A stretch of DNA of 64,000 nucleotides from an uncultured Bacilli bacterium (GCA_944332705.1 CALVKM010000005.1:3618-67617), one strand, 5' to 3'. Shown: positions 24 through 54,188, counted from the stretch's first letter. The notes: a model not told the origin generated them from the letters alone. Translations and numbers: made by a program.

Positions 24-995
24 TTGTTGGCTTTGTATTTTATTAATAATTTTAATTCTATTTCTGTTTATAAACTCACTTATAACACAAATGATGATAT
101 CAATATTCAAAGTGGATATTTTATTAATAGCAAGGTTAGAAATATTTTGATTATTGATAACATTGAAATAACTGACATAGATTATGAAATACAATCCACT
201 CAATTAGAATTATATACTTTAGTTAATGCCGATAAAATAGTTATTTATGAAAGTGACAACTTAGATGATATATTAATAGATGAATTAAAAGAATATCCAG
301 TAATCTTAGAACAAGATATAATTCATTATATGAAAAATAATTTACATTTAGAAATTACTATTACAGATACTAATAATACAGTACATAATTATAAAGCATT
401 AATTGTTCTTAAAGATTACTTCAGTAATAATAAATTAATATATGATTCATTTAAACCTGAAATAATAATGAATCAAATGCCTGAGTATATTAATCAAGTT
501 GCAGATAGTTTAACCAATAAATCTTATGCAACTTTTTTAATGACAGAAGAACCTAAAGAATTAAATGATGAAACTAACAATACAAATAAATTGCTATCAA
601 TTGGTTATACATATGATGACAAGACAGATACATATATAAAGATGGATGGGATAAAGGAAATAATTTATAATGATAGTGCTCGTTATATAAAAGTTGGTTA
701 TATATTGAATGATTCTGAATTTGTTATTAGCTACTATTATGAATCCAATAGAATTTTATTTAATCAAAATATTGATAATGAAATACAACTAAGATTTTAT
801 TATTATGTTAATACAAAAGAATTTGATTGTATCATCGGAGACTGCGAAAATTATCAATTAGAAATAGACTATATTCTTAAGGAATATCAAAGAATTCTAA
901 CAACTCTACAATCGTATAGTTGTTACTCTATTAATTTTCCGTTGCGTTTTTCTTTCGTTTTATATTACAATGTTCATGGAAACGGAAGGAGGTGA
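24..995 (+). CDS. hypothetical membrane-anchored protein; 5' end probably lies upstream of the window
   Basis: The frame stays open back to nt 3 (ILGIIFILLALYF hydrophobic anchor). TTG 24 is only the first in-window start. Long ORF ending TGA 993-995. No family recognised. Confidence 0.45.
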   Translation: MLALYFINNFNSISVYKLTYNTNDDINIQSGYFINSKVRNILIIDNIEITDIDYEIQSTQLELYTLVNADKIVIYESDNLDDILIDELKEYPVILEQDIIHYMKNNLHLEITITDTNNTVHNYKALIVLKDYFSNNKLIYDSFKPEIIMNQMPEYINQVADSLTNKSYATFLMTEEPKELNDETNNTNKLLSIGYTYDDKTDTYIKMDGIKEIIYNDSARYIKVGYILNDSEFVISYYYESNRILFNQNIDNEIQLRFYYYVNTKEFDCIIGDCENYQLEIDYILKEYQRILTTLQSYSCYSINFPLRFSFVLYYNVHGNGRR

Positions 996-1005
996 CAAAA
1001 ATTAG

Positions 1006-1822
1006 TGTGAGGAAAAATATTATAAGAGTGGCTTCTACTTTTATAATATTAACAACAATGGTATTTATAAGTAGTGTTAAAGCAGAAACAACAACGGAAG
1101 ATTACAACAAATTAAGAAGTATATTCTCAGAAGAACGTATATCTTTAATGAGTGAAGAAGAAAAAGCTATGTACACTGAAAATGAAGTCAACGTTAATGA
1201 AAAGCTTTATAAAGGAACTCTAACAGCAAATGGAACATACAGCTATGAAGAAATAGACCCAAGCTTAGAAGATGATATACGAAACAACGCCGGAGTAAGT
1301 ACATTAGATGTAACGTATTCAACAACTTATAAGAAAATATCATTAATTGATACTGCATTAAGCAACAATGGACATTATTTATCAGTATATACACAATGGC
1401 TTATTGTTCCCGCAACCCAATCTTTTGATGTAACAGCATTGCGCGTGGAAGATGCAACAATTGTTGAAGGTACTCAATATGGTCTTCAAGTATATATTAA
1501 AAATGGTACAACGGGCTCAGTTAACTATTCACCAAACGGAACAAACATTAGAAAAGCAGACAACGGATTTGGAATATCAATGAATTTAGTTAATGGCGCT
1601 TCATATTATGAAACAGAAATATCAGCTAATGTAATTGCAACTTCACAAAGTGCTAAAGCCTATGGAACATATCAACATGCGGTTACTGATTTAACACTAG
1701 ATGCTTCGCAAAGTTATACTATTTCTCATAATGGTTTTGGAAGAGTCTTGAATTTTGCAACTGGGGTACAAAACTATTATGATGGCATGAACGGAGTTTC
1801 GTTATCTTTAAGCTATTCTTAA
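1006..1822 (+). CDS. secreted protein of unknown function
   Basis: ORF 992..1822. GGAAGGAGG at 984-992 makes GTG 1006 the likeliest start. This gives the signal peptide VRKNIIRVASTFIILTTMVFISSVKA/ETT. No family recognised. Confidence 0.55.
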
Positions 1823-1833
1823 AAAATCGTATT

Positions 1834-1921
1834 TCTATAATTTCCATAACTGTTTTATATGTTAAGGATTAGATTAATCTATAATTTCCATAACTGTTTT
1901 ATATGTTAAGGATTAGATTAA
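1834..1921. repeat. perfect 44-bp tandem duplication (2 copies)
   Basis: TCTATAATTTCCATAACTGTTTTATATGTTAAGGATTAGATTAA occurs at 1834-1877 and again at 1878-1921, just after the upstream stop codon. Confidence 0.95.
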
Positions 1922-2211: not shown

Positions 2212-3690
2212 ATGGAAAAAGAAAAAATAATATCTTCTATAGCAAAACGCGGCAACGGAGAAATATATCTCGGCGTTGTTGGAGCGGTAAGAACAGGGAA
2301 ATCAACTTTTATTAAACGTTTCATCGAGAACTTAGTAGTTCCCAATATCACAGATGAATACGAAAAGAAGCGTTGTTTAGATGAAATCCCTCAAAGTGCT
2401 CAAGGAAAAACAATCATGACAACAGAGCCTAAATTTGTTCCTAGTAATGGTGCAACAATTAAGGTTGGTGAATTTGAAACAAGCATTAAATTAGTTGATT
2501 GTGTCGGTTATGTGATACCGGATGCCAACGGATTTGTGGATGAAGATGGTAATCCAAGAATGGTTAAAAGCCCTTGGTTTGAGGATGCTATTCCTTTTGT
2601 TGAAGCCGCTGAAATAGGCACTGAAAAAGTGATAAAAGATCATGCGACAATAGGGATTGTAGTAACTTCAGATGGATCTTTTGGTGAAATCAAAAGAAAT
2701 TCCTATGTTGAAGCTGAAGAAAAAGTGGTGTCGGAGTTAAAAAATATTGGAAAACCATTTATTGTAATACTTAATACAGTACACCCAACTAATACGGAAA
2801 CAAGGGAACTGGCACAAAGTTTAAGTACATCATATGAGGTTCCCGTAATTCCTATTAGTGCTGAACTGATGAATGAAAAAGAAATAATGGAGATATTAAA
2901 AACAGCATTATATGAATTTCCAGTGCTTGATATTAAGGTTTCTATTCCTGAATGGGTTCATGTCTTACCTAATGAACATGCAATAAAAAAAGAATATTTG
3001 GAAAGAATTAGAGAAAGTGTAATAAGTGTTGATAAGATTAAAGATGTTGATTTTATTTTAGAACATTTTAATGATTCTTTATATATTTCTAATGCTTATA
3101 TTAGTGAATTAGATGCATCCACAGGAACTATTACAATTAATTTGGAATCTCCAAATGAACTTTACACAGAAACATTAAAATCTATTATGGGAGATACTGT
3201 TACAACAAAAGCAGGATTATTAAAAATTTTTGCATCATATACGGAAAATAAAGAGGAAATGGCCGCTTTAAAAGAAGCCATTAAAATGACTCAAACAACC
3301 GGTTATGGTATTGTATATCCACAATTAAAAGAATTAAAATTAGAAACTCCTGAGTTAGTTAAACAAGGAAGTAGATATGGCGTAAAATTAAAAGCAGTGG
3401 CTTCAAGTATTCACATGATTAAAGTTGATGTTGAATCAACATTCGAACCAATCATTGGTAGTGAATTACAATCAAAAGAATTAATCAAACATCTAATGAA
3501 AGATTATGAAGCTGATTCAGCTAGTATTTGGAAAAGTGAAATCTTTGGGCGCAGTTTAGAGACAATCGTCCAAGAAGGAATACAAGCTAAACTTAATATG
3601 ATGCCAGAAAATACAAGGTTTAAGTTAAAAGAAACACTATCTAAGATTATAAATAAGGGATCAAATACCTTAATTGCTATCGTAATTTAA
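2212..3690 (+). CDS. spoIVA: stage IV sporulation protein A (spore coat morphogenetic ATPase)
   Basis: 492 aa. The N-terminus MEKEKIISSIAKRGNGEIYLGVVGAVRTGKSTFIKRFIE carries the Walker A motif. Length and sequence are characteristic of SpoIVA. Confidence 0.93.
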   Translation: MEKEKIISSIAKRGNGEIYLGVVGAVRTGKSTFIKRFIENLVVPNITDEYEKKRCLDEIPQSAQGKTIMTTEPKFVPSNGATIKVGEFETSIKLVDCVGYVIPDANGFVDEDGNPRMVKSPWFEDAIPFVEAAEIGTEKVIKDHATIGIVVTSDGSFGEIKRNSYVEAEEKVVSELKNIGKPFIVILNTVHPTNTETRELAQSLSTSYEVPVIPISAELMNEKEIMEILKTALYEFPVLDIKVSIPEWVHVLPNEHAIKKEYLERIRESVISVDKIKDVDFILEHFNDSLYISNAYISELDASTGTITINLESPNELYTETLKSIMGDTVTTKAGLLKIFASYTENKEEMAALKEAIKMTQTTGYGIVYPQLKELKLETPELVKQGSRYGVKLKAVASSIHMIKVDVESTFEPIIGSELQSKELIKHLMKDYEADSASIWKSEIFGRSLETIVQEGIQAKLNMMPENTRFKLKETLSKIINKGSNTLIAIVI

Positions 3691-8307: not shown

Positions 8308-9790
8308 ATGGCTACTATTTAAGTCTAAATTGTTATATAGTTAGAAGTACTTATGAAGATGGAAAATTTACTGCAGAATTAAAATTAACTTCTGAAAATT
8401 ATATGGCAGATGAAAATGGAACTTGTACAAACTATGAAAAAGGTAGCGCTATTACGATTTATGCTTGTAAAAGTGATGGAACCTGCAAAGAGGTTGGAAA
8501 TAATTGGTATAATGAAAATGTGACTTTAGAAATTCGCTATCCTGATGGAAGTACTTTTCAAGAAGAAAATGCTACTTATGAATGGAAAACTAACCAAGGA
8601 ATAAATTATGATACTGCTACAGTTGCTACAAATGTCGCCGAAAATAATGCAATTACTTTACCATATACGGTAAATGTAACTTATCTAAAAGATGCTGAAA
8701 ATGTAATTGCTACTGTTAGTAAAAATGTTAAAATAGATATGCAACCACCAGAAATTTTAGAAACAATAATTAAAGATGAGGCAACTTGGACTAATACTGA
8801 AAAAGAAATAACTATAAGAGTAACGGATTATAATGGTTCAGGTGTTTATGGTATATATGTTGGAGATAAGGATTGTAGTTCACTTACAATTGAAGATTTT
8901 GAAAAGTTAAATGACAACAAATATATAACAACCAAAAATAATGGTACATATAATGTTTGCTTGAGAGATAATGCTGGCAATCAATCCGCAGGGGGGCTAA
9001 TAATTGGTATGTTGAAAATGTCAATTTAGTTTTAAACACCAGTGATGATGCAAGTGGAATATCTCAAAAAGGTATGTCTACTAGTAGCAAGGTTAATTAT
9101 AATAATGTCACTGCTAGTCTTCAAAGAAATACTAAAGGAACAACATATTATGGTTATGTCAAAGATGAAGCTGGGAATGTTGGATCTTGCAATTTAAATG
9201 TAAAAGTGGACTCGACACCACCAGAAATAAGTTTTAATATAAGTGGAATAGATACTGCTATAATGACATGTAGTGATGATACTAGTGGTATAAATGGTAA
9301 AACCAACTACAACCAAAGATTAACAGGAACGAGAGATTATACAGTAAATCAAACATGTACAAACAATGCTGGAGTTTCTGCAACTCGTAGCCATACATAT
9401 GATTATAGTAGTTGTGCAGATACTCATATTGAATGTAGACCAGGATGTGGTACTTATTATAGTGATTGTGCATCTGGATCAAATACTTGTCGTCCTGGAT
9501 ATGAACAAGTATGTACTGAGGTTTGTATTGGCGGTTATATTCAACATTATAATTGTTGTAGTAGTTTAAATGGTGGCAATTGTTTTGATTCAACTGTTAA
9601 TTATCCAAATGGTTATTGTGGTCCAACTTATAAAGAATGTAAAAAAAAGGGCCAATCTTGTACATCTGGAAGTTATAATCCATGTTATAGTGGCTCTAAT
9701 ACTTGTAAACCTGGTTATGTAACAGATCCAAGTACTTGTGATAGTTGTTATTATCGCGAAGAAGTTTGTGAAGGAGGATTTTTATATTGA
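8308..9790 (+). pseudogene. 5'-truncated, frame-disrupted paralog of the 5328..7634 pilin-like gene
   Basis: AAGGAGG RBS plus ATG 8308 gives only MATI-stop. Homology to the paralog starts at 8322, where 8322-8363 matches 5598-5639 at 38/42 nt. The frame breaks again in the overlap 8972-9027, which contains a G6 run (8991-8996). ORFs 8274..9029 and 9074..9790 are its two pieces. Confidence 0.7.
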
Positions 9791-11300: not shown

Positions 11301-14300
11301 GTGGCTTATAAAGTTAAAAAATTTGGTGACTATCGTGAAAGAAGAAGTTTTTCGAGAACGAAAAACGTTTTGGAGTTGAAAGATTTACTCGAAATCCAAA
11401 AGAAAAGCTATCAAGAATTTTTGGATGAAGGCATCAAAGAAATCTTTGATGATTTATTTCCTGTTGAAAGCTTTACGGGAAATATTTCTTTAGAATTTGG
11501 AAATTATTATTTTGATGAACCAAGATATTCTATTAAAGAAGCTAAAGAAAGAATGGTAAACTATGCTGCACCACTTAAGGTTGAGGCGCGTCTTTTCGTG
11601 CATGAAACTGGAGAAGTAAAGGAACAAACTATATTTTTAGGAGACATGCCTTTAATGACTGATGCTGGAACATTTATTATAAATGGGGCAGAAAGAGTTA
11701 TTGTATCGCAACTTGTTCGTAGTCCTAGCGTTTATTTCAAAAGAGAAATTGATAAAAATGGACGACACATTATTACTGGAGAATTAATACCTAATAAAGG
11801 TACATGGCTTGAATACGAAACTGATGCTCGTAATGTTTTGTATGTCAGAATTGATAGAACTAGAAAAGTAACTGTAACAACTTTGCTTAGAGCTCTAGGT
11901 TTATCAACAGATGAAGAAATAATTGAAGTTTTTGGTGATAATGAATATATAATAAATACTTTAGAAAAAGACAGTACTAATAATACTGATGAAGCTTTAA
12001 TTGAAATTTATGAAAAGTTAAGACCTGGTGAACCAGCAACCCTTGATTCATCAAAGAACCAACTTATTACCAGATTCTTTGATAGATTCCGTTATGATTT
12101 AGCCAAAGTTGGTCGTTATAAATTCAATAAAAAGTTAAATGTATTAGATAGGCTACAAGGCTTAACTTTAGCTGAACCAATAATTGATGGTAAAAAAGTA
12201 ATTGCTGAAGCTGGCAGTGTTGTAACTAAAGAATTAATTGAAACATTAAAACCATTATTTGCAAATGGCTTAAATGTTCATGACATAAAAATAAATGAAG
12301 AATTAGATGACTATAATAAAGTTCAAACTGTTAAAGTTGTAGATCCTCTTGATGCTAAAAAAACAATTACTTTAATTGGAACAGATGGATCTGTCGATGT
12401 TAGAAGACTTACAATACCTGATGTTTATGCATCCCTAAATTATTATATAGGATTACATTATGGTATTGGTTCAGATGATGAAATTGATAACTTAGGAAAT
12501 AGAAGAGTTCGTCAAGTTGGAGAATTAATTCAAAATCAATTTAGAATTGGTATGGCCAGAATGGAAAGAGTAATTCGTGAAAGAATGACTACACAAGAAC
12601 TTGAAACAGTTACTCCAAAAACTCTTATTAATATTCGTCCAGTAACTGCGGCCCTAAAAGAATTCTTTGGTTCATCTCAATTATCAAAATTCATGGACCA
12701 AATTAACCCAATCGCTGAACTTACCGATAAAAGACGGTTATCAAGCCTAGGACCTGGAGGACTATCACGTGATCGTGCTGGCATGGATGTTCGTGATGTT
12801 AACGCATCTCACTATGGTCGTATTTGTCCAATTGAATCACCAGAAGGTCAAAACATTGGTCTTATCACATCCCTTGCAGGTTATGCTAAAATTAATGAAT
12901 ATGGCTTTATCATGACTCCATACAAAAAAGTTGTTGGTGGTAAAGTAACTGATGAAGTAGTTTATATGACTGCTGATGAAGAAAAAGATTACTATATATC
13001 TCAAGCAACCATTGCTATAAATGAAAATAATGAAATTGTTGATGATGAAGTTATTGCTCGTTTAAATGGGGATACTGTATATGTAGATAGAATGCATGTT
13101 AATTATATCGATGTTGCACCTTCGCAAGTAGTTTCAATTACAACTAGTTGTATACCATTCTTGGAATATGACGATGCTAATAGAACTCTAATGGGTGCTA
13201 ACATGCAAAGACAAGCAGTGCCACTACTAGAAACTGAAGCTCCAATTGTTGGTACTGGTGTTGAATATATTGCAGCAAGGGATTCTGGTTCAACAATTGT
13301 TTGTAAAGCAGATGGTGTTGTAGAATATGCTGATGCTCTAAAGATTGTGGTAAAAGTTGCTAAAGGAACTGATACTTATAATCTTGCCAATTTTGAAAGA
13401 AGTAATGCTTCAAGTTGTATTAATCATCATCCACTAGTAAAAGCTGGTGATAAAGTTCATGCTGGTCAAGTTATTGCTGATGGTCCATCAACAGATGGAG
13501 GAGAACTTGCTTTAGGTAAAAATATGACTGTTGCCTTCATGACATTTAATGGCTATAACTATGAAGATGCAGTAATATTAAATGAAAGATTAGTTAAAGA
13601 TGATGTTTATACATCACTTCATATTTCCCATTATGATATTGAATGCCGTGATACAAAGCTTGGACCAGAAGAAATTACTAGAGATATTCCAAATGTTGGG
13701 GAAGATGCTCGTAAAAATCTTGATGCTGATGGTATTGTTAGAATCGGTACTGAAGTAAAAGAAGGCGATATCCTAGTTGGTAAAGTTACACCAAAAGGTG
13801 TTCAAGAATTAACTAGTGAAGAAAAATTATTACATGCTATATTTGGGGAAAAAACTCGTGAAGTTCGTGATACCTCATTACGCGTAGAACATGGTGCTGG
13901 TGGTATTGTTCACGATGTTAAAGTATACACTAAAGAAAATTCTGATGAATTAGGTGCTGGTGTATCTAAAGTTATCAGAGTATATATAATTCAAAAGAGA
14001 AAAATCCAAGTCGGAGATAAAATGTCCGGTCGTCATGGTAACAAAGGGGTTATCTCACTAATATTACCAGAAGAAGATATGCCTTACTTACCAGATGGTA
14101 GACCAGTTGACATCATGCTTAATCCTCTAGGTGTTCCATCTCGTATGAATATTGGTCAAATACTAGAAGTACACTTAGGTATGGCTGGTAAAAAACTTGG
14201 TGTTCATTATGCAACTCCAGTATTTGATGGTGCAACTTGGGAAGATATTTTAGAAGAAATGAAAGCTGCTGGTATGGCTGAAGATGGTAAAGTTGAACTT

Positions 14301-14903
14301 CGTGATGGTCGTACTGGGGAACCATTTGATCATCGTATCAATGTTGGGGTAATGTATATGGTTAAACTACATCACATGGTTGATGATAAATTACATGCTC
14401 GGGCAACAGGACCATACTCACTTGTTACTCAACAACCTCTAGGTGGTAAAGCTCAATTCGGTGGTCAAAGATTCGGAGAAATGGAAGTTTGGGCATTATA
14501 TGCTTATGGTGCTAGTCATGTTCTTCAAGAAATCCTTACAGTTAAAGCCGATGATATTGTAGGTCGTGTTAAAGTTTATGAATCATTAGTTAAAGGCAAA
14601 GTAATTGATCAAGCTGGTGTACCAGAATCATTCCGAGTATTAGTTAAAGAATTCCAAGCATTAGCTCTAGATGTTCAAATAATTGATCAAGATGATAACA
14701 TCTTAGAATTTAAAGAACTAGAAGAAGATGACGATGATTCTACGGCATTCAGAATAGATGAAATAGAAGTAACACCAAAAGATGTTGAGGCAAATAATGA
14801 ACCGGAGCCAGAACCAGAAATTGATGAATTTGCAGAAGAAGAAAAAGATTTAGATGATTTGGAATTTCCAGGTGATATAGATGAAGGGGATATAGGTGAA
14901 TAA
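11301..14903 (+). CDS. rpoB: DNA-directed RNA polymerase subunit beta
   Basis: 1200 aa with unmistakable RpoB sequence (e.g. [24 protein letters not shown]). GTG start. Confidence 0.98.
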
Positions 14904-43728: not shown

Positions 43729-44205
43729 ATGGAAGATTTATTAAAGTTTTTAGATATTAAGTATGCTAGTGTTACCCATAAACCAGTGTATACTTCTAAG
43801 GAAGCTCAGTTTATTAAAGAAAAAATAAATGGTATTGGTTGTAAAAATTTATTTTTAAAAGATAATTTAGGTAAATATTATTTATATGTATTTGAAGATA
43901 CTAATAAAGCTAATATCAAAGCATTAGAAAAGTTTTTAGAAGTTAAAAAACTACATTTTGGTAGTAGTGAAGAATTAGAAAATATTTTAAAATTAATACC
44001 TGGTGGAGTAACACCTCTAGGTATTATTAATGATACATCTAATTTAGTATGTATTATTTTAGATGAATCTTTAGTAAACAATAAATTATTAGTTCATTTA
44101 AATACTAATACAACAACTATAGCAATAGATTATAGTGATTTAATCAAATATATTACATATTTAAAACATGAATATAAAATATTTAAAGGAGATAACAATG
44201 AATAG
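43729..44205 (+). CDS. YbaK/ProX-type aminoacyl-tRNA trans-editing domain protein
   Basis: H.PVYTSKEA...CKNLFLKD...YYLYV...GGVTPLGIIND...NTNTTTIAI matches the prolyl-tRNA-synthetase-associated domain pattern. Confidence 0.7.
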   Translation: MEDLLKFLDIKYASVTHKPVYTSKEAQFIKEKINGIGCKNLFLKDNLGKYYLYVFEDTNKANIKALEKFLEVKKLHFGSSEELENILKLIPGGVTPLGIINDTSNLVCIILDESLVNNKLLVHLNTNTTTIAIDYSDLIKYITYLKHEYKIFKGDNNE

Positions 44206-45055
44206 ATATAAATCTGGAAAAATTGCTAGTATATTAGGTATACTTGGCAATCTTTTTTTGCTTATTATAAAAGGTATTGTTGGCATGCTTACTAAAAGTC
44301 AAGCAATGATTGCTGATAGTATTAATAGTGCTAGTGATATAATCTCATCAATTCTTACTTTTATAGGTAATAAAGTAGCTAGTAAACCTAGGGATGAAGA
44401 TCACCATTTAGGTCATGGAAAAGCGGAGTATATATATTCAATGCTTATAAGTGTATTAATTATTTTAGTAGCTATAACAGTATTTAAAGATTCAATTGTA
44501 TCTTTATTTGATCCAAGTAACTATAATTTCTCTATTTGGTATATTATAGTTTGTATTGTTACTATATTAGTTAAGTTAGGTTTATTTTTATATACTAATA
44601 AAGTTGCTAAAGTACATAATAATTTATTAATACTAGCTAATTCAAAAGATCATCGTAATGATATGGTAGTAACCTTTTTTACGCTCTTATCAGGAATATG
44701 CATGTGTTATAGTATTAGTTTTGTAGATAGTGTTGTGGGTATTGGTATATCTATATTTATATTAATTACAGGTATTAAAATATTTATAGCTAGTTATGAT
44801 GTTTTAATGGATAAAGCAATGAATGAAAATACTAAAAAGGAAGTTATGGATATAATAAAAAAATATAAAGAAGTAAAAAAGATTCAACATTTTAATGCAA
44901 CACCAGTTGGTTATTTATATCAAGTGTCATTTACTATATTTGTTGATGGCAACTTAAGTACTTTTGAATCTCACGATATTGCCAACAAACTAGAAGAAGA
45001 AATAAGTGCCCTAGATGATATTTATGTTACAATTATTCATGTTAATCCAATTTAA
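44198..45055 (+). CDS. cation diffusion facilitator family transporter
   Basis: ASILGILGNLFLLIIKGIVGMLTKSQAMIADSINSASD and HLGHGKAE motifs. AAGGAG RBS precedes ATG 44198. Confidence 0.85.
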   Translation: MNRYKSGKIASILGILGNLFLLIIKGIVGMLTKSQAMIADSINSASDIISSILTFIGNKVASKPRDEDHHLGHGKAEYIYSMLISVLIILVAITVFKDSIVSLFDPSNYNFSIWYIIVCIVTILVKLGLFLYTNKVAKVHNNLLILANSKDHRNDMVVTFFTLLSGICMCYSISFVDSVVGIGISIFILITGIKIFIASYDVLMDKAMNENTKKEVMDIIKKYKEVKKIQHFNATPVGYLYQVSFTIFVDGNLSTFESHDIANKLEEEISALDDIYVTIIHVNPI

Positions 45056-45109
45056 TACTTGTTATTTTGGCTGATTGTGTTAAAATAAAGAAGAAGTATG
45101 GTGATATAA

Positions 45110-45562
45110 ATGGATAGAAGACAAAAAAGTTTTATAATAGTATTAGCTATAATATTAATGATACTAATAATTAGTTTTATTTATGCACTTATCAAACAAA
45201 ATGAAGAAGAACAGGCCGAGATAAATAAATTACACACAGATTTATCACTTACAGAAATTATAAGAGTTGAAAATTATACTGTAGATGAAGAAGACGAAAA
45301 CGAAGCAATCTTATTTATCACTAATCCTGATGCAGTTGCTGATATTGTCGCATTAATAAATGATGCTCCAATTAAATCAATTAGTGCTAGTGATATAACA
45401 ACTCAAAGTGAAACAAGTAGCAATTACAGTTTAGAATTTTTAGATAGCGATAATAACACAATATTATTTCTTGATGGTGATATAATAACCTATAATGATA
45501 ATTTTTATCAGGTTACTTATAATTATGATTATCTATTAGAAATTATAGAAAGTGTAGAATAA
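45110..45562 (+). CDS. N-terminally membrane-anchored protein of unknown function
   Basis: 150 aa with a FIIVLAIILMILIISFIYALI anchor. Its last codons and stop lie inside direct-repeat copy 1. Confidence 0.5.
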   Translation: MDRRQKSFIIVLAIILMILIISFIYALIKQNEEEQAEINKLHTDLSLTEIIRVENYTVDEEDENEAILFITNPDAVADIVALINDAPIKSISASDITTQSETSSNYSLEFLDSDNNTILFLDGDIITYNDNFYQVTYNYDYLLEIIESVE

Positions 45563-45582
45563 AAATCTACATTTTTTTAAAT
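45553..45582 (+). repeat. 30-bp direct repeat copy 1, also a rho-independent terminator
   Basis: TGTAGAATAAAAATCTACATTTTTTTAAAT, with TGTAGA/TCTACA stem, 7-nt loop and T7. Identical to 51107-51136. Confidence 0.95.
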
Positions 45583-45650
45583 AACTATATTAATGTGAAA
45601 GATGATTGTGTGTTATAATATTATGTAATTAATTCGGAGGAGGTAGAAAA

Positions 45651-46241
45651 ATGGGAAAGTTGTCAAATATGATGTATATGATAGATTTATTAAATACAGG
45701 AAATATATATACATTAAAAGAGTTATCTGAAAAAATTGGAGTAACAGAAAGGATGATTCGCTATTATAAAAATGAAATTTGTAATAATGGAATTGTCATT
45801 GAAAGCTTTAAGGGGCCGAATGGTGGATATTTTATGATTGATAAAGTAAAAAATTATATTAATGTTAATAAATATGATATTCAATTATTAGAAAACATAG
45901 CTAATTTTTTATCCGAAAATAATTTTGAATACATGGATAAATTTAGTAAATTTTTAGATAAAGCCAAAAAAATGTATTCAATTTATGATGAGAAAAGTAA
46001 ATATATTTCAAATATAGATATTGATATACCAGGAGAAACAGAAAAAATAATTGAATCTGCAATCAGCAAAAATGAAAAAGTTGAAATTATATATAATGAT
46101 ATTGATGGCGGACAGTCAAAAAGAACAATTCATCCACTCCATTTGTTTAAATATAAAGATGATTTTTATATTACAGCATTTTGTGAGTTGAGAAATGATA
46201 TAAGACATTTTGAATTAAAAAGGATTGTTAATATAAAATAA
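45651..46241 (+). CDS. HTH-WYL domain transcriptional regulator (short YafY-like, no WCX extension)
   Basis: N-terminal wHTH YTLKELSEKIGVTERMIRYYKNEI. C-terminal WYL-like KVEIIYNDIDGGQSKRTIHPLHLFKYKDDFYITAFCELRNDIRHFELKRI. Confidence 0.75.
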   Translation: MGKLSNMMYMIDLLNTGNIYTLKELSEKIGVTERMIRYYKNEICNNGIVIESFKGPNGGYFMIDKVKNYINVNKYDIQLLENIANFLSENNFEYMDKFSKFLDKAKKMYSIYDEKSKYISNIDIDIPGETEKIIESAISKNEKVEIIYNDIDGGQSKRTIHPLHLFKYKDDFYITAFCELRNDIRHFELKRIVNIK

Positions 46242-46292
46242 TTAAGACGAAATATTTCATTTTGTTGTGATATAATATTTTCAAGGAGAAAA

Positions 46293-46814
46293 ATGATTAT
46301 GATGAATGATTATATTTTTATTGATTTTGATGGAGTTATTTTGAATTCGGAAGAGAGAATGTTACAGAGAAAATATGATTTGGGGCTACGAGATCATAAA
46401 AATAAAAATGAGTTTGACAAATATTTTGAATATACAAATTTAAATCCTGAAGAATGGGATTATATTATTAGAGAGGCCAATTCAATTAATGATTCTGTTG
46501 AAATAATAAAAGAACTTGAACAAATGAAAACAAAAATTGCAATTTTAACAAAAATTCACACTCTTTATGAAATGAAAGTGAAAATCGAGGATTTAAGAGA
46601 AAATAGAAACATTATGTGTCCGGTATTCTTTGTTCCGCCTGGAATAAAAAAGTATCAAGTTATTATACCAAATAATCAGTTACTTATTGATGATTCGGAA
46701 AAAAATATTAGAGAATGGATTGAAAATGGTGGTTCCGGTTTAATATTTGATTCTACTATTGATAAAGATACACATGGAAGAGTTAGGAGTTTAGAATTTT
46801 TAACTAAGAGGTAG
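46293..46814 (+). CDS. HAD-superfamily phosphatase, 5'(3')-deoxyribonucleotidase (NT5C)-like
   Basis: Motif I IDFDGVI and motif IV LLIDDSEKNIREW. The size (173 aa) is typical of NT5C-type nucleotidases. Confidence 0.6.
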   Translation: MIMMNDYIFIDFDGVILNSEERMLQRKYDLGLRDHKNKNEFDKYFEYTNLNPEEWDYIIREANSINDSVEIIKELEQMKTKIAILTKIHTLYEMKVKIEDLRENRNIMCPVFFVPPGIKKYQVIIPNNQLLIDDSEKNIREWIENGGSGLIFDSTIDKDTHGRVRSLEFLTKR

Positions 46815-46819
46815 TACAT

Positions 46820-49159
46820 ATGAGAAAAGAAGAATTATTGTTTAGAAATTATCAAAAATCTTTAAAACAAAAATATAATGCTGTTTGTTTTGATATTGAT
46901 GGTACTTTAACTGTTAAAGATTCAAAGTCAATTGATGATAGAGCGATAGAAATGATTATAAATTTATTAAGAAAAAAAATTCCAGTAGTATTTATTACTG
47001 GACGTGGTGAAACCGGACTGAACGATTTGAAAAATGACATATATGAAAGTGTTAAATATGCCAAAAATATAACTGATAATGATATAAAGAGAATATATGT
47101 TTTGACTAATGATGGGGCCAGATTATTTTATAGTAAAAATACATCTAAAGAAAAATTTTTAAATGAAAGTGTTTATATTTCTACAAAAGAAGAATTAAAT
47201 CAATTGTCAAACATAAATAAAATGATTGATAATATAAAAAAGAATTATTTATACGATGATTGTTTTAATGTTACATATTCTAAAGATTTAAAAACTGATG
47301 AAATTATAAATATTAGAATTGTATTTAATACAAATGAAAAAAAAGAGATAGATTTGGTGTTTGATAGTATTGAAACCTTTATACAAGATAATGATTTTCA
47401 TGAAATTCATTTAACTAGAGGTATGTATAAAAATAAAGCAGTTATTCAAATAGGCACCGCTACTAAAGATAAGGCTATTGAAAGAGCAGAAGAAATAATA
47501 GGTGTACCTAAGAATTCGATGATGAGAGTTGGTGATTGTGGTGATTTACGTGGAAATGATTATGCAATGCTTAATTGTAATCAGGGATATAGCGTAGATA
47601 AAACAAATGGTTCTATAAATTCTTGTTTTCCTGTATTTGATGAATATGGTAATATAATAAAAGGAGTAGATGCCACACTTCAGTTGGTAAAAAGTGCTAA
47701 AATTCTGCCTACAGTGTGTTTGGAAAAAGCTGATAAACTTACTTATCAACGACAATTTGCTAATATAGAAAAAAATATTGTTTTAGGCAGAAAGAAATTA
47801 TTAAATAAGTATAATGAAATTATTAATAAAAATTTTAATGAATGCAATGGTATAGATGATTTGTTTGATAAATTCAGTGGGAGTGTTAAAATACCAATGT
47901 ATGAATGGGAACTTTTAGAAAATAATTCCTTAAAAGAATTATGGAAGGCATCAATTAACGGGAATCAAATTTATTCAATTAGAGATGACAATAATTACCT
48001 TTTACGAGGATCTAGTACTTATTATTATTTTATATCAAATCGAATAAGTAATAATGGCGTTGATGTTACATCAAAAAATGATATATTGAATTGGCATCAA
48101 AATTATTTAATTTTTTTAAACAATTCAATACAGGCAGTTTCAATAGCCGATAATTTAAATAATCAAATTAATAAAAAAATGTTACTAGGTATTTTAGATA
48201 ATTGTAGAAATGTCCTACTTGTTTTGTTAAATCATAATTTATTTTCAAATTATTATGATAATAATATTTTGTTAGATATTTCTTCAAGTAATGAAAAACA
48301 AATTTTTAGTATTTATAATTCTTTATTTGAAGTTGATAAAATGATGAGTAAAATATGTTTTCATCCACAATATATTATAAGTAAAGATTGGATTATTGAA
48401 AATATAATTAATACAAAAATTGTTTTGGAAGATAATCTAAAAATTGAGATTAATAATGAAGAGAAAGTGGATTATTCAAAAGATTATAGAGCTTATAGAG
48501 AAATCGATAATTTTGGAGAAAACTATGTAGCGGTGTCTTTATATAAGGAGAAAAGCAACAATAATGAAGTTAGTAGTGCGTGCGGACTAAGTTATGGTGG
48601 CATAGAATTGCCAATATTAACTAAAATAATAAATCAAAACAAGGTCGAAAAATTATTTCTTTTAAAATTTAACAAGAAAGTATCTGGTTATACCAATAAA
48701 CAGCTTATTGATTTGAGGAATTTCAATATAAATGATTTTGGAGGATTAATAAATTCTGAATATTTTAAAGGATTAACTGTTGATTTGTTTGATGATAATG
48801 TTTTAACCGGTAAAACCTTACAATTAGCTATTAACTCTTTGTATGATTGTGATATTCATGTTAAAAATGTTTGTATTGTTAGATATCCTAGCATTAATAG
48901 AATTAATCAGATGTTTTTAGATAATCCAGCAGCCGTTGATTATCATTTGTTTTTTGATTATATATATGGTTTATGCTTTAATAGTCCTTATAGTTGGAAA
49001 GATAATGAATGGAAGTACGAAAATGGTACTATTAATTATACTGATACATTAGGCGTGTTTGATTTAAATAGAAAAAAGATAATAGAGTGTTTAGTAAAAA
49101 ATCATGATTTTAATGAATATAGTGAAGTTGGAGAATATAAAAGGAGATTAGTAAAATGA
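46820..49159 (+). CDS. fusion protein: Cof-type HAD phosphatase, unknown helical middle region, phosphoribosyltransferase
   Basis: HAD motifs FDIDGT (res 24-29), ITGR and GDCGDLRGNDYAM. PRTase PRPP-binding loop VDLFDDNVLTGKTL (res 653-666). Residues about 300-570 are unassignable. Confidence 0.7.
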   Translation: MRKEELLFRNYQKSLKQKYNAVCFDIDGTLTVKDSKSIDDRAIEMIINLLRKKIPVVFITGRGETGLNDLKNDIYESVKYAKNITDNDIKRIYVLTNDGARLFYSKNTSKEKFLNESVYISTKEELNQLSNINKMIDNIKKNYLYDDCFNVTYSKDLKTDEIINIRIVFNTNEKKEIDLVFDSIETFIQDNDFHEIHLTRGMYKNKAVIQIGTATKDKAIERAEEIIGVPKNSMMRVGDCGDLRGNDYAMLNCNQGYSVDKTNGSINSCFPVFDEYGNIIKGVDATLQLVKSAKILPTVCLEKADKLTYQRQFANIEKNIVLGRKKLLNKYNEIINKNFNECNGIDDLFDKFSGSVKIPMYEWELLENNSLKELWKASINGNQIYSIRDDNNYLLRGSSTYYYFISNRISNNGVDVTSKNDILNWHQNYLIFLNNSIQAVSIADNLNNQINKKMLLGILDNCRNVLLVLLNHNLFSNYYDNNILLDISSSNEKQIFSIYNSLFEVDKMMSKICFHPQYIISKDWIIENIINTKIVLEDNLKIEINNEEKVDYSKDYRAYREIDNFGENYVAVSLYKEKSNNNEVSSACGLSYGGIELPILTKIINQNKVEKLFLLKFNKKVSGYTNKQLIDLRNFNINDFGGLINSEYFKGLTVDLFDDNVLTGKTLQLAINSLYDCDIHVKNVCIVRYPSINRINQMFLDNPAAVDYHLFFDYIYGLCFNSPYSWKDNEWKYENGTINYTDTLGVFDLNRKKIIECLVKNHDFNEYSEVGEYKRRLVK

Positions 49160-51111
49160 GAGTAGTAAGTATTGGTGATTTAGTAGTTGATTATTATTAC
49201 AAAGATCAAAAATTATTGGGAATAAACGGAGGTATGACATCTCATAACATTATTGCTAATTTAGCAAAAATGAAAATACCTGTTTCAGTTTTTGGAGTAT
49301 GCGGTAATGATATTCAAGGGCAAATAGCAATTGAAAGTTTAAAAAAACTAGGTGTAGATATAGATAATATAAAAATGTTAGATAATGTTAAAACTCGTAC
49401 TTTTCATGTATCTTATTTTGATAATGATGGTAAGTTAACCTTTGTTTCCAAAAAAAGATGTCCATTTTGTCAAAATAAAAAATGGTATGAAGAAAGTTTA
49501 ATTGATATAAAAAACATTATTGATAATATTAAACATGACGATATTTTAATATTTGATAATTTAAATAATAAAAATCAAACAATTATTGATAAAACTGATA
49601 ATAAAAAAATAATTGATTTAGGACAGTATTTTGAATTTGAAGTCTTGTCTAATCAAGAGATAATTGATAAGTTAGCAAATAAGTTTGAAATAATTAATTT
49701 TAATGAAAGAGTTAGTAAATATTTGTTAAATAGATTAAAATTAAAGGATGATGTAGAGTTATATAATTTACTTAAACCGAGATTTATGAGTATAACTCGA
49801 GGTGAAAATGGTGCTACATTTATAGAAAGTGGTAAAGAGTATAATTTTGATTTGATTTATAAAGGAAAAGTTGTTGATTCTACTGGGGCGGGTGATGCTT
49901 TTATTTCTAGCATAATAAAAGATGCTATTAAAAATAATTTTAAATATGATAGTAATTTATTTAGAAAATGGTATGAAAATTCTAATAAATTAACTTCTAA
50001 AGTAGTATCTGTTATGGGGGCTAGAGGACATATTAATACATTGTTTAAAATTAAAAAAATGGATAATTGTTGTACTTGTGATAATTTAATTTATATAAAA
50101 AGAAAAACTATTAAAAGATGCAATATAAACATTAATAATTTGGAATCTAGGATTATTAATGCTCTTAATTCTTCTGCTAGTAAAATGGTGAATAATATAG
50201 GTTTTAATGAAAATGATAATTGTTTGTTTATTGGAACAGGTGGTTCCTATGCGGGAGCTTATTTTGCATCTAAAATTATTAATTTATTATATGGCTGTAA
50301 CACCTATGCTTTATATCCTAGGGATGTATTATATCGAAATAATCAAAATATAAATAAAGTTATTTTATTTTCTTATTCTGGCACAACTAATGATATTATT
50401 AATAGTGTTAAAGATTTTGATAAGAAAAACATGTATATTATTACTAAAGGAGATATTAAAAATATAGTTTTAAAAACAGGAATAACAAAGAAAAACATTT
50501 TATGTTATAAAACATCAACAAATAAAGGAAAAGAAAGAGGTTTTTTATCATTTGAGGGAGCAGTAGTACCTGCGGCAATATTTTTTAAATATTACTATAA
50601 TATAGTTGATAATACATTTGATATAAATAACTTTGTCAAAGAATCTATAACTTATTGGAAGAATTATTTGAATCAAATTTTGAACAAAGAAATTATAAAT
50701 GAAATAAAAAAACACAATTTAATAAATATTTTCCGAGGAGACTATACTGATAGTGCTTGTTATGATTTAGAGAGTAAAATTATTGAATCTGGTGTATTTA
50801 ATTGTATAATGCATGAAAAAAAGAATTTTTCTCATGGAAGATTCATTAATTATGAAAATTTAAATAATATACATTCCATTTATTTTAAACAAAAATTTAC
50901 TAGTAAATATGAAGTAGAATTAATTAAATATTTGAAAGATAAGAATTTAATTATTGAAAGTAGATATAATGGAATACTTGCGGAATTTGATCTTTTAATT
51001 GCATCACAATTTATCGTTTATTATATTGGTAAAATACTAAACATTGATGTATCAAAACCAAAATATTCTGATGATGCAATGAATATTTATTTTTATAAAG
51101 GGGAAATGTAG
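49156..51111 (+). CDS. fusion protein: PfkB-family sugar kinase plus GlmS-C/AgaS/FrlB-like double SIS domain
   Basis: PfkB motifs GGMTSHNIIANLA and DSTGAGDAF (res 241-249). SIS motifs GTGGSYAGAYFASK and LFSYSGTTND. A second SIS-like segment reads ESKIIESG...HEKKNFSHGRF. Confidence 0.7.
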   Translation: MRVVSIGDLVVDYYYKDQKLLGINGGMTSHNIIANLAKMKIPVSVFGVCGNDIQGQIAIESLKKLGVDIDNIKMLDNVKTRTFHVSYFDNDGKLTFVSKKRCPFCQNKKWYEESLIDIKNIIDNIKHDDILIFDNLNNKNQTIIDKTDNKKIIDLGQYFEFEVLSNQEIIDKLANKFEIINFNERVSKYLLNRLKLKDDVELYNLLKPRFMSITRGENGATFIESGKEYNFDLIYKGKVVDSTGAGDAFISSIIKDAIKNNFKYDSNLFRKWYENSNKLTSKVVSVMGARGHINTLFKIKKMDNCCTCDNLIYIKRKTIKRCNININNLESRIINALNSSASKMVNNIGFNENDNCLFIGTGGSYAGAYFASKIINLLYGCNTYALYPRDVLYRNNQNINKVILFSYSGTTNDIINSVKDFDKKNMYIITKGDIKNIVLKTGITKKNILCYKTSTNKGKERGFLSFEGAVVPAAIFFKYYYNIVDNTFDINNFVKESITYWKNYLNQILNKEIINEIKKHNLINIFRGDYTDSACYDLESKIIESGVFNCIMHEKKNFSHGRFINYENLNNIHSIYFKQKFTSKYEVELIKYLKDKNLIIESRYNGILAEFDLLIASQFIVYYIGKILNIDVSKPKYSDDAMNIYFYKGEM

Positions 51112-51136
51112 AATAAAAATCTACATTTTTTTAAAT
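51107..51136 (+). repeat. 30-bp direct repeat copy 2, also a rho-independent terminator
   Basis: Identical 30-mer to 45553-45582. It supplies the TAG stop of 49156..51111. Confidence 0.95.
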
Positions 51137-53754: not shown

Positions 53755-53829
53755 ATATTTTTATATATCTAAACGAACCCCCAACAGCGCTACTTTAATC
53801 AAAAATAAGCAAAGAATAAGCAAAAATGG

Positions 53830-53858
53830 TTGCATTTTTGCTCTTTGTGTAATATAAT
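53830..53858 (+). promoter_or_regulatory. sigma-A type promoter of the tRNA pair
   Basis: TTGCAT, a 17-nt spacer, then TATAAT, ending 21 nt upstream of tRNA-Arg. Confidence 0.55.
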
Positions 53859-53879
53859 TATAGTGCACCCAGAAATTCT

Positions 53880-53956
53880 ACGCCCATAGCTCAATTGGAT
53901 AGAGCGCTAGACTACGGATCTAGAGGTTGGGGGTTCGAATCCCTTTGGGCGTACCA
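53880..53956 (+). tRNA. tRNA-Arg (anticodon ACG)
   Basis: A manually folded 77-nt cloverleaf. Acceptor ACGCCCA/TGGGCGT, D-arm GCTC..GAGC, anticodon stem CTAGA/TCTAG with loop CTACGGA, T-loop TTCGAAT, encoded CCA. Confidence 0.9.
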
Positions 53957-53969
53957 TTTTTTAGGATAA

Positions 53970-54046
53970 CGAGAAGTAGCACAATTTGGTAGTGCACTTG
54001 GTTTGGGACCAAGGGGTTGCAGGTTCAAATCCTGTCTTCTCGACCA
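53970..54046 (+). tRNA. tRNA-Pro (anticodon UGG)
   Basis: 77-nt cloverleaf. Acceptor CGAGAAG/CTTCTCG, anticodon stem CTTGG/CCAAG with loop TTTGGGA, T-loop TTCAAAT, encoded CCA. Confidence 0.9.
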
Positions 54047-54188
54047 TTTTGAAATTTAAGTCCGATATGGGCTTTTTTTATACCCCAAACAAGTGTACAG
54101 TTTATTTTAATAATTTGTTAATACGCCCAAATGGTTATGTTGTGTTAAAATTATTAATATGATATACTTATTATGGATGGTGTCAAAG

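Follow-up and report, generated by a model that had tools for sequence, protein, structure and literature searches.

A mobile operon of gut Bacilli, probably WYL-regulated, that may make a PRPP-derived, nucleoside-like metabolite

A stretch of 64,000 nucleotides (nt) from an uncultured Bacilli bacterium (GCA_944332705.1 CALVKM010000005.1:3618-67617; hereafter the window, with positions counted from its first letter) carries at positions 45611-51136 a compact cassette of four genes, which are bracketed by two identical 30-nt repeats. Our preferred reading, to which we assign slightly less than even odds (a probability of about 0.45), is that the cassette is a mobile mini-pathway, under the control of a transcription factor with a WYL domain, that makes a nucleoside-like and probably toxic metabolite from phosphoribosyl pyrophosphate (PRPP). 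The computational analysis shows which domains the encoded proteins contain, that the operon is conserved and mobile, and that flanking repeats recur around it. The genes that follow the regulator encode proteins of 173, 779 and 651 amino acids (aa), and these are referred to below as HAD173, P779 and P651; numbers prefixed with L denote retrieved loci.

The arrangement of the operon was borne out by the coordinates of the open reading frames (ORFs). As had been described in an earlier interpretation of the same DNA (the sequence-only reading), the repeat copies enclose four + strand genes; of the last three, the first two are separated by 5 nt (46814 to 46820) and the second and third overlap by 4 nt (49156-49159) (Table 1). 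Relatives of the cassette were found in at least 101 species in a scan of one genome per species, and 77 loci were retrieved from these matches. All 77 belonged to uncultured gut Bacilli ('Tenericutes' and 'CAG' bins; 92-44% identity), the one named host being Candidatus Onthocola, which is classed as Bacilli incertae sedis. The order WYL, HAD173, P779, (optional genes), P651 was kept in nearly all of them, the WYL gene almost always coming first; HAD173 was usually part of the operon and was absent from 8 loci. For P779 and P651 there are hundreds of full-length unnamed homologues of near-constant length. When 16 orthologous loci were compared, the only conserved elements upstream of the WYL start were a TnTGnTATAAT sequence about 25-30 nt before the ATG and a ribosome-binding site, so that the unit spans from about -40 to the P651 stop codon. 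The extended -10 promoter previously attributed to the WYL gene is present as a conserved sequence element and is a candidate for the promoter of the operon. At one locus (L028:5705-5788), about 360 nt downstream of P651, 28 codons remain of what looks like the start of a WYL gene (86% identity with the start in the window), which hints at a former tandem or neighbouring second cassette.

Table 1. Features of the cassette and its flanking repeats (positions in the window)
Feature	Position	Strand	Basis or remarks
Left 30-bp repeat copy	45553..45582	+	exact match; hairpin -10.1 kcal/mol, z -4.4
Extended -10 element TGtTATAAT	45611-45619	+	upstream of the WYL gene, read from sequence; candidate promoter
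Ribosome-binding site GGAGGAGG	~45636-45643	+	upstream of the WYL gene
HTH-WYL transcription factor, 196 aa	45651..46241	+	Pfam WYL and PADLOC WYL models
HAD173, small HAD phosphatase of NT5C (5'(3')-nucleotidase) type, 173 aa	46293..46814	+	weak profile matches, motif
P779 fusion, 779 aa	46820..49159	+	HAD-IIB ~aa 1-295, domain X ~aa 300-557, type I phosphoribosyltransferase (PRTase)-like ~aa 558-779
P651 fusion, 651 aa	49156..51111	+	PfkB (ribokinase-family) kinase ~aa 1-300; SIS pair (GlmS/AgaS/FrlB type) ~aa 315-651
Right 30-bp repeat copy	51107..51136	+	exact match; hairpin -10.3 kcal/mol, z -5.5

The four domain assignments made earlier, namely an HTH (helix-turn-helix)-WYL regulator, an NT5C-like HAD, a HAD-X-PRTase fusion and a PfkB/double-SIS fusion, were all supported by profile and Foldseek evidence, although for the HTH part the matches were weak. 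In the regulator, residues 133-195 match Pfam WYL (PF13280; E 1.4e-15, 57.5 bits against a cut-off of 21.8), and the protein also matches the PADLOC WYL (Cas-associated) model with an E value of 3.8e-25. Residues 7-65 gave weak matches to HTH_11, MerR_1 and Rrf2 (E 2e-4 to 7e-4, below the Pfam cut-offs). A putative N-terminal HTH before a WYL domain, in the first gene of a mobile cassette with its own predicted promoter, recalls BrxR, CapW and the WYL repressors of CRISPR loci, but the C-terminal WCX dimerisation domain of BrxR and CapW is absent; there is no room for it because the WYL match reaches residue 195 of 196. Judged by its domains and position, the protein is presumably a ligand-gated autoregulator of the operon.

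The small phosphatase HAD173 matched Pfam NT5C (E 8.2e-4, below cut-off) and NCBIfam HAD-IA (5.6e-4), and its translation shows the DFDG motif I. The N-terminal domain of P779 scored 41.4 bits against the NCBIfam HAD-IIB model TIGR01484 (cut-off 41.8), and its HAD motifs were invariant in 47 homologues: FDIDGTL (D25, D27), TGRG (T60-G63), K216 and GDCGD..D (D239, D242, D247). Foldseek searches with P779 returned HAD matches only, the best neighbours in the PDB being ISN1 IMP-nucleotidases (E 1e-7) followed by Cof-type HADs. Although these structures (ISN1 of P. falciparum, 6rn1, and of yeast, 8j6h, and Cof-type HAD-IIB proteins) were matched with E values of 1e-7 to 1e-5 and a probability of 1.0, the identity was 13-17% and the target-normalised TM-score about 0.45, too distant for a substrate of the P779 HAD, here part of a 779-aa fusion, to be inferred.

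The central domain X of P779 comprises about 250 conserved residues and was confidently modelled by AlphaFold2 (AF2). A profile of the X+PRTase part, built with relatives that lack the HAD domain, found only PRPP synthetases and purine PRTases in the PDB; these were aligned on the PRPP loop (best E 7.8e-4), so that matches were confined to the PRTase side and no homologue of domain X was detectable in this search. The corresponding sequence in P779, VDLFDDNVLTGKT, fits the expected pattern of hydrophobic residues and two acidic residues followed by xxTGxT, and D658, D659, N660, T663, G664, K665 and T666 were invariant in the 47 homologues. When 17 relatives of P779 were run against Pfam, Pribosyltran was matched in 5/17 and PRTase-CE in 2/17, the best Pribosyltran score being 7.2e-5 (22.6 bits against a cut-off of 26.3). 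It was by this profile and through these relatives that the earlier PRTase call was supported, even though Pfam misses P779.

The kinase half of P651 is clearly recognisable (Pfam PfkB, PF00294; 60.6 bits against a cut-off of 25.8), and the top Foldseek matches of the protein were nucleoside, aminoimidazole-riboside and sugar kinases (E 1e-14). A profile of the SIS half found in the PDB TM0813 ('GlcN6P deaminase'), an SIS protein and the isomerase domain of GlmS, with E values of 5e-4 to 2e-3. Motifs invariant in 42 homologues were DSTGAGD (within DSTGAGDAF), GTGGS, SYSGTT and HEKKNFSHGRF, of which GTGGS, SYSGTT and HE...SHG are taken by us to resemble the phosphate-binding and catalytic motifs of GlmS-type enzymes. 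The sequence-only reading had likened the enzyme set to the nucleotide-heptose enzymes GmhA/HldE/GmhB and to FrlD/FrlB. The same three enzyme classes as in the heptose pathway (SIS isomerase, PfkB kinase and HAD phosphatase) are indeed present, but the adenylyltransferase domain is absent and a PRTase stands in place of the nucleotidyltransferase; moreover GmhA has a single SIS domain, whereas the SIS part of P651 is of the two-domain GlmS/AgaS type, and P651 scored 39.8 bits with rfaE_dom_I (the kinase domain; cut-off 345) and 25.5 with HldE (cut-off 521). With FrlD/FrlB and GlmS/AgaS the cassette shares a domain pair and its order, a PfkB kinase and then two SIS domains. FrlD and FrlB, however, are separate proteins, whereas in P651 PfkB and SIS are fused in one polypeptide that is always coupled with the PRTase protein; the NCBIfam fructoselysine-6-kinase model NF007321 gave 42.8 bits against a cut-off of 247, and no FrlB model was among the matches listed. 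Because these equivalog scores lie far under their cut-offs, membership in either pathway is not supported, and the heptose and fructoselysine pathways serve as analogies only.

Further indications of the chemistry were provided by genes that are inserted between P779 and P651 in some of the loci. Many loci contain a CAT-family acetyltransferase together with an alpha/beta-hydrolase esterase, some have the esterase alone, and others a DHH/DHHA1 phosphoesterase with an APH-family kinase. In each of the two-gene inserts one enzyme would attach a group and its partner would take it off again; the cassette of the window itself has neither pair. Antibiotic producers mask intermediates in this way, using the StrA kinase and StrK phosphatase for streptomycin and the Pac acetyltransferase and NapH hydrolase for puromycin. 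The likeness to the pairs found here, CAT with esterase and APH with DHH, is an analogy of logic only.

The only plasmid match for P779 was found on Bacillus cereus pRML02 (L093; NZ_CP011157.1, record positions 102046-115042), which encodes a HAD-less X-PRTase of 473 aa (28% identity, E 5e-30). Immediately after it come a CatA-like acetyltransferase (E 6e-35 and 29% identity with the CAT of the cassette) and a phosphatase of the NT5C family. The same cluster also encodes a BtrH-like protein, an aminotransferase, an acyl carrier protein (ACP), a pyridoxal phosphate-dependent decarboxylase, an adenylate-forming enzyme and an ABC exporter. Since the trio of X-PRTase, acetyltransferase and NT5C phosphatase recurs in the gut cassette, the family appears to be tied to specialised-metabolite synthesis. 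The pRML02 cluster is unannotated and of biosynthetic type, and 700 nt upstream of it lies an extra, plasmid-borne metG (methionyl-tRNA synthetase), which might be a self-resistance gene. For the SIS half of P651 no plasmid match was obtained.

A comparable logic is seen in other systems. Anantharaman, Iyer and Aravind reportedly predicted a biosynthetic module of PRTase and HAD for tellurite-resistance (Ter) clusters, and toyocamycin- and tubercidin-type pathways combine a PRTase with HAD or Nudix steps. The P779 HAD gave a weak structural match (E 7e-3) to the HAD of Acinetobacter phage ME3, a carrier of a Ter system. What the Ter module for a nucleoside-like metabolite, as described in PMC7824862, and the cassette have in common is a PRPP-dependent transferase followed by a HAD phosphatase, which would give a riboside; however, no sequence relation beyond the superfamily folds was detectable between the cassette and the Ter or nucleoside-antibiotic systems, TerB, TerD and TerC are absent, and here a novel domain of 250 aa stands between the fused HAD and PRTase, whose partners are a PfkB/SIS protein and a WYL regulator.

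The resemblance to FrlD/FrlB suggested a different possibility, that the cassette is a salvage or catabolic operon for a ribosyl or Amadori compound of the gut, in which PfkB and an FrlB-type deglycase would degrade a ketosamine or riboside, the PRTase and phosphatases would recycle the base or sugar set free and the WYL protein would act as a repressor that senses a metabolite. Fructoselysine-6-kinase is among the top NCBIfam matches of P651 (4.4e-11, far under its cut-off) and PfkB followed by a double SIS mirrors FrlD/FrlB, the hosts are gut Bacilli with housekeeping neighbours, and the proteins are strongly conserved and of constant length. Nevertheless, the cassette has no transporter gene, pairs of modifying and unmodifying enzymes are unusual for catabolism, the plasmid relative stands among genes for an ACP, an adenylating enzyme and an exporter, and more distant relatives fused to TIR or metallophosphatase domains occupy defence-type neighbourhoods (see below); WYL regulators, moreover, are not known from sugar catabolism. 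We consider this explanation unlikely.

An exhaustive profile search of the P779 family gave 552 clusters at 50% identity, including HAD-less forms of 470-580 aa and fusions to TIR (P0292), to a metallophosphatase (P0300, P0344 and others), to a kinase-like TCAD9 domain (P0396), to TrpRS/TyrRS-like domains (P0353, P0354) and to PRAI plus ribulose-phosphate epimerase (P0289). In P0289, PRAI, the Amadori isomerase of tryptophan synthesis, is fused to HAD-X-PRTase, an arrangement that repeats the TrpD/TrpF logic of a transferase and then an Amadori isomerase. Five loci with fused forms (L087-L091) were located on contigs, and in 4/5 of these the surroundings were of the defence-island type. The metallophosphatase-fused gene of L087 adjoins Schlafen/AlbA-type, reverse transcriptase-nitrilase, AAA_14 and HD genes. 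At L088 a protein of 354 aa that is homologous to the SIS half of P651 (E 4e-49, 32% identity) is encoded after the fused gene, and then come two DNA methylases and an LlaJI-type restriction system; at L089 the gene with the TIR fusion precedes that of a weak PfkB protein; the L090 gene is situated between type I restriction-modification genes, AbiTii and an IS110 element; and at L091 a PfkB gene is found upstream, with NUDIX, PRTase-CE and ORC/CDC6-like genes downstream. Separate PfkB or SIS-half genes thus accompany the distant relatives as immediate neighbours. As these relatives keep both enzyme parts, the two-part core is evidently ancient, and in these branches it keeps defence-type company.

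Two of these neighbourhoods contain unusual genes. In L087 (1399-4533, - strand) a 1044-aa protein joins a reverse transcriptase to a carbon-nitrogen hydrolase (nitrilase) domain; together with the adjacent Schlafen/AlbA-HATPase, AAA_14/DUF4143 and HD/HD_assoc genes, the stretch resembles a defence island. In L091 (5479-11611), downstream of the metallophosphatase-HAD-X-PRTase gene, NUDIX, a 546-aa ORF, PRTase-CE, an ORC/CDC6-like ATPase and a 368-aa ORF may extend the first conflict system or form another one. The validated DefensePredictor system DS-9, which consists of a metallophosphatase and a HAD protein, might have been a split counterpart of the relatives with a metallophosphatase fusion, but was rejected by size, its unit being 2.48 kb and its HAD a small HAD-IA.

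The suspected link with defence islands was therefore seen for the distant fused relatives and not for the gut Bacilli, whose cassettes are found among housekeeping genes. The most frequent neighbour families in the latter were NUDIX (5), GNAT (5), MerR (3), Ham1 (2) and dCMP deaminase (2), and PADLOC run on these neighbours returned generic candidate (PDC-S) models only. Within the cassette, the WYL protein alone matched a PADLOC-DB v2 family, HAD173, P779 and P651 giving none at E values up to 0.1; no NCBIfam equivalog or close PDB sequence matched the enzymes, and no description of the gene combination was found in full-text searches of the literature, which bears out the earlier statement that it corresponds to no characterised pathway or named defence system. 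Searches of phages gave no tblastn match for P779 and generic HAD matches only in BFVD, and a metagenome scan with an alignment of the fused relatives returned one locus, which was already in the set.

These surroundings raise the possibility that the cassette is an anti-phage abortive-infection system in which, on derepression, the ISN1-like and NT5C-like HAD nucleotidases, the PRTase-like domain, in the role of an enzyme that cleaves nucleotides or consumes PRPP, and the kinase/isomerase would drain nucleotide or PRPP pools and so starve the phage. Such a role would suit a regulator of the defence-associated type, the PRTase-CE (conflict-effector) matches of two relatives, the TIR- and metallophosphatase-fused relatives beside restriction-modification, Abi, reverse transcriptase-nitrilase and HD-type genes, the recurrence of NUDIX, Ham1 and dCMP deaminase genes as neighbours, and the mobile, accessory nature of the cassette. 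On the other hand, the acetyltransferase/esterase and kinase/phosphoesterase inserts are better suited to the handling of one specific small molecule, the B. cereus relative lies in a biosynthetic-type cluster, the gut cassettes lie outside defence islands, and no PADLOC model matches P779 or P651; depletion as the mode of action seems to us improbable. Synthesis of a specific metabolite, our preferred reading, could itself be extended to a form of chemical immunity, in which a WYL-gated core would make a PRPP-derived toxic riboside or ribulosamine that is masked in some variants by acetyl or phosphate groups, the module would spread without a recombinase of its own while duplicating 16 to 286 bp, and the cores fused to TIR, metallophosphatase or kinase domains would represent an unrecognised anti-phage family. 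We regard this extended proposal as doubtful.

The mobility of the cassette was evident from its surroundings. The ORFs within three genes of it, 341 in all, fell into 288 clusters, the largest with four members, from which it follows that the neighbourhood differs in almost every species. Exact flanking direct repeats of at least 20 nt were present at 11/53 non-redundant loci (20 to 286 nt, of unrelated sequence) and at 0/2,224 control placements of the same span. Typically the repeat consists of a stop codon and a terminator hairpin, and the P651 stop codon is often exactly where the right copy starts; L036 has a terminator plus a promoter as its repeat, and L030 has 286 nt from a gene's 3' end. 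The left end of the cassette varied from 23 to 371 nt before the WYL ATG, and inspection of the junction sequences revealed no inverted repeats. The L030 repeat (8955-9240 and 14270-14555) is an exact duplicate of the 3' end of dac (PBP5_C) that brackets the cassette; the dac gene itself is in pieces, and a second, distant serine-recombinase-like gene lies at 1638-2906.

Further evidence for transfer came from species (L024, L082) in which a Peptidase_S11 (dac) gene is split by an element made up of the cassette, a 66-aa ORF and a large serine recombinase. The order is dacN, cassette, orf66, recombinase and dacC, and it recurs with extra cargo in L004/L019 and L025. Between L004 and L024 the element genes were 89-97% identical whereas the halves of the split host gene were 47% and 51% identical, which demonstrates horizontal transfer; across these species as a group the values were 81-97% and 44-55%, respectively. 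In at least four species the element (L004:4155-17632; L024:8292-19052; L082:8357-17061; L025:2406-15192), whose main cargo is the cassette, interrupts the gene for the D-Ala-D-Ala carboxypeptidase after residue ~130. Because the hosts carry spoVA genes, it may be a skin-like intervening element in a sporulation gene. Neither a recombinase nor a split gene adjoins the cassette of the window.

In the window, the 30-mer TGTAGAATAAAAATCTACATTTTTTTAAAT occurs in exactly two + strand copies (Table 1); no further copy was found there with up to three mismatches or in 100 shuffles, and the pair is the sole dispersed exact repeat of its kind in the 64 kb. As noted previously, each copy supplies the stop codon of the gene to its left in a different frame, the left copy containing the TAA of a 150-aa ORF (45110..45562; ...GTA GAA TAA) and the right copy the TAG of P651 (...GAA ATG TAG); the right copy lies 35 nt upstream of the ATG of a Ca-ATPase gene (51172). 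Both copies with their flanks fold into a 6-bp core stem lengthened by an A-rich upstream run that pairs with the U tract. The hairpins are thus terminator-like, as had been claimed, and it is plausible from the predicted fold that they act as terminators; neither was listed by a simple consensus terminator scan, because that scan demands at least three G-C pairs.

The origin of the repeat was indicated by a further locus, L094, whose positions 1-1029 are 99.2% identical to window 44128-45156, through a CDF gene (identical protein) and the first 47 nt of the 150-aa gene. Beyond window position 45156 there is no DNA similarity and the downstream genes are unrelated (PNP, PGM, IleRS), but the 149-aa allele of the gene in L094, although only 41% identical in amino acid sequence, has the same end, AGT GTA GAA TAA (AGTGTAGAATAA). 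Since the gene end is shared, the first 10 nt of the 30-mer (TGTAGAATAA) are native host coding sequence, the 3' end and stop codon of the upstream gene, and the copy after P651 is derived; in agreement with this, P651 here ends in GEM* where the family consensus is GDL*. The repeat pair would accordingly represent a duplication of host sequence (gene end plus terminator) made when the cassette inserted, as far as the comparison of these sequences allows us to infer. At the boundary between L094 and the window, which falls within a gene for a small membrane protein, recombination or rearrangement at the strain level has left a sharp breakpoint. L094, which came from an exact look-up of the CDF protein, was also considered as an empty site and was rejected, its similarity stopping inside the 150-aa gene and its downstream genes being unrelated.

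Inheritance of the insertion was then apparent from the nearest relatives. In L010, the nearest species (94% DNA identity), the repeat is 39 nt long on both sides and the same Ca-ATPase gene lies downstream; the left flank of this locus is unrelated to that of the window (arc operon, ClpC), homology beginning just after the left repeat. The hairpin region after the P651 orthologue is identical in L010, and in L011 it has diverged between P651 and the Ca-ATPase gene. As the two nearest species carry cassette and hairpin before the same Ca-ATPase gene, the insertion is older than these species splits. The earlier description of a horizontally inserted accessory module thus holds as to its accessory and mobile character, but not as a recent insertion private to this genome.

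These same observations could be taken to mean that the cassette was inherited vertically and that the 30-mers are two terminators from one local family, whose sequences gene conversion or selection would keep the same. The shared position upstream of the Ca-ATPase gene in the two nearest species, the similar divergence of the cassette proteins (88-97%) and the flanking ATPase (96%), the failure to find an empty site and the absence of a recombinase in or beside the cassette of the window are all compatible with this idea. It does not account, however, for flanking repeats of unrelated sequence at about one-fifth of the loci and at none of the control placements, for right copies that start exactly at the P651 stop codon, for a 30-mer that occurs nowhere else in the window and contains native coding sequence of the upstream gene, for neighbours that differ in nearly every species, or for the transfer demonstrated on the serine-recombinase element. 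Vertical descent with repeats unrelated to insertion is very unlikely and is the least probable of the alternatives considered.

Relatives with a single copy of the 30-mer, as the sequence-only reading had anticipated, were not found. An exact search of metagenome and viral contigs for the 30-mer returned nothing, empty sites reconstructed for 14 repeat-bearing loci had no spanning match in any retrieved locus, and an exact look-up of the 150-aa protein gave cassette-bearing contigs only. Three other origins of the repeats were considered and set aside: an RNA intermediate (retro-insertion), some insertions holding their own promoter in the unique part (L067); a tandem array or circular permutation, the repeats differing between lineages and including host coding sequence; and an integron attC-type cassette, the hairpin being too short, the flanking copies identical and an integron integrase absent.

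Taken together with the domain assignments, these results allow a pathway to be proposed, of which the order of the enzymes, the product, the regulation and the biological role are all conjectural. The PRTase domain of P779 would couple PRPP to an acceptor held by domain X, and the ISN1-like HAD of P779 and/or the NT5C-type HAD173 would take off the 5'-phosphate to give a riboside. The PfkB and the GlmS/FrlB-type double SIS of P651 would then re-phosphorylate the sugar and isomerise it by an Amadori-type aldose/ketose-amine step. The resulting small molecule, nucleoside-like or derived from a ribosylamine, would probably be toxic, and many relatives would use an acetyltransferase/esterase or kinase/phosphoesterase pair to mask and unmask it; the WYL protein would hold the operon off until its ligand arrives, and the product would probably be used in conflict with phages or competing bacteria. 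The earlier idea of a nucleoside-like metabolite or antimetabolite gains support from the modify/unmodify pairs and from the pRML02 cluster and is retained here as a proposal.

Several points weigh against this reading. No member of the family has a known enzyme activity, product or phenotype. P779 itself gets no Pfam Pribosyltran match, and in the AF2 model of its PRTase part pLDDT is below 50 over most of residues 560-750; the SIS assignment consists of weak profile matches (E about 5e-4) plus conserved motifs. The biosynthetic reading is backed by one plasmid cluster and the context of the distant relatives by just five loci, while the neighbours of the cassette in gut Bacilli are housekeeping genes, with no established defence system adjacent among the 149 nearest neighbours. 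Furthermore, no empty site was recovered, so that the insertion event is deduced from the repeats alone, and the cassette has no recombinase, transposase or terminal inverted repeats that could account for duplications of 16-286 bp.

The two fusion proteins nevertheless define a large nameless family (552 clusters, at least 101 gut species) with no Pfam model for the central domain, whose genomic associations point to a small molecule that bacteria of human and animal guts derive from PRPP. Should the product prove to be an antimetabolite or an antiviral nucleoside analogue, it would add a new scaffold to the natural products and perhaps a new class to the defence systems. The sequence-unrelated direct repeats around a cassette without a recombinase raise the question of how long, variable target duplications arise.

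Two further features of the window were recorded. Just downstream of the Ca-ATPase gene, a segment with tRNA-Arg(ACG) and tRNA-Pro(UGG) (53806-54092) is inverted in L010 (17784-18071), the DNA on either side being collinear. Near the start of the window (1834-1921), a 44-nt unit (TCTATAATTTCCATAACTGTTTTATATGTTAAGGATTAGATTAA) is present as a perfect tandem duplication of two copies in the intergenic region between ORFs 992..1822 and 2212..3690.

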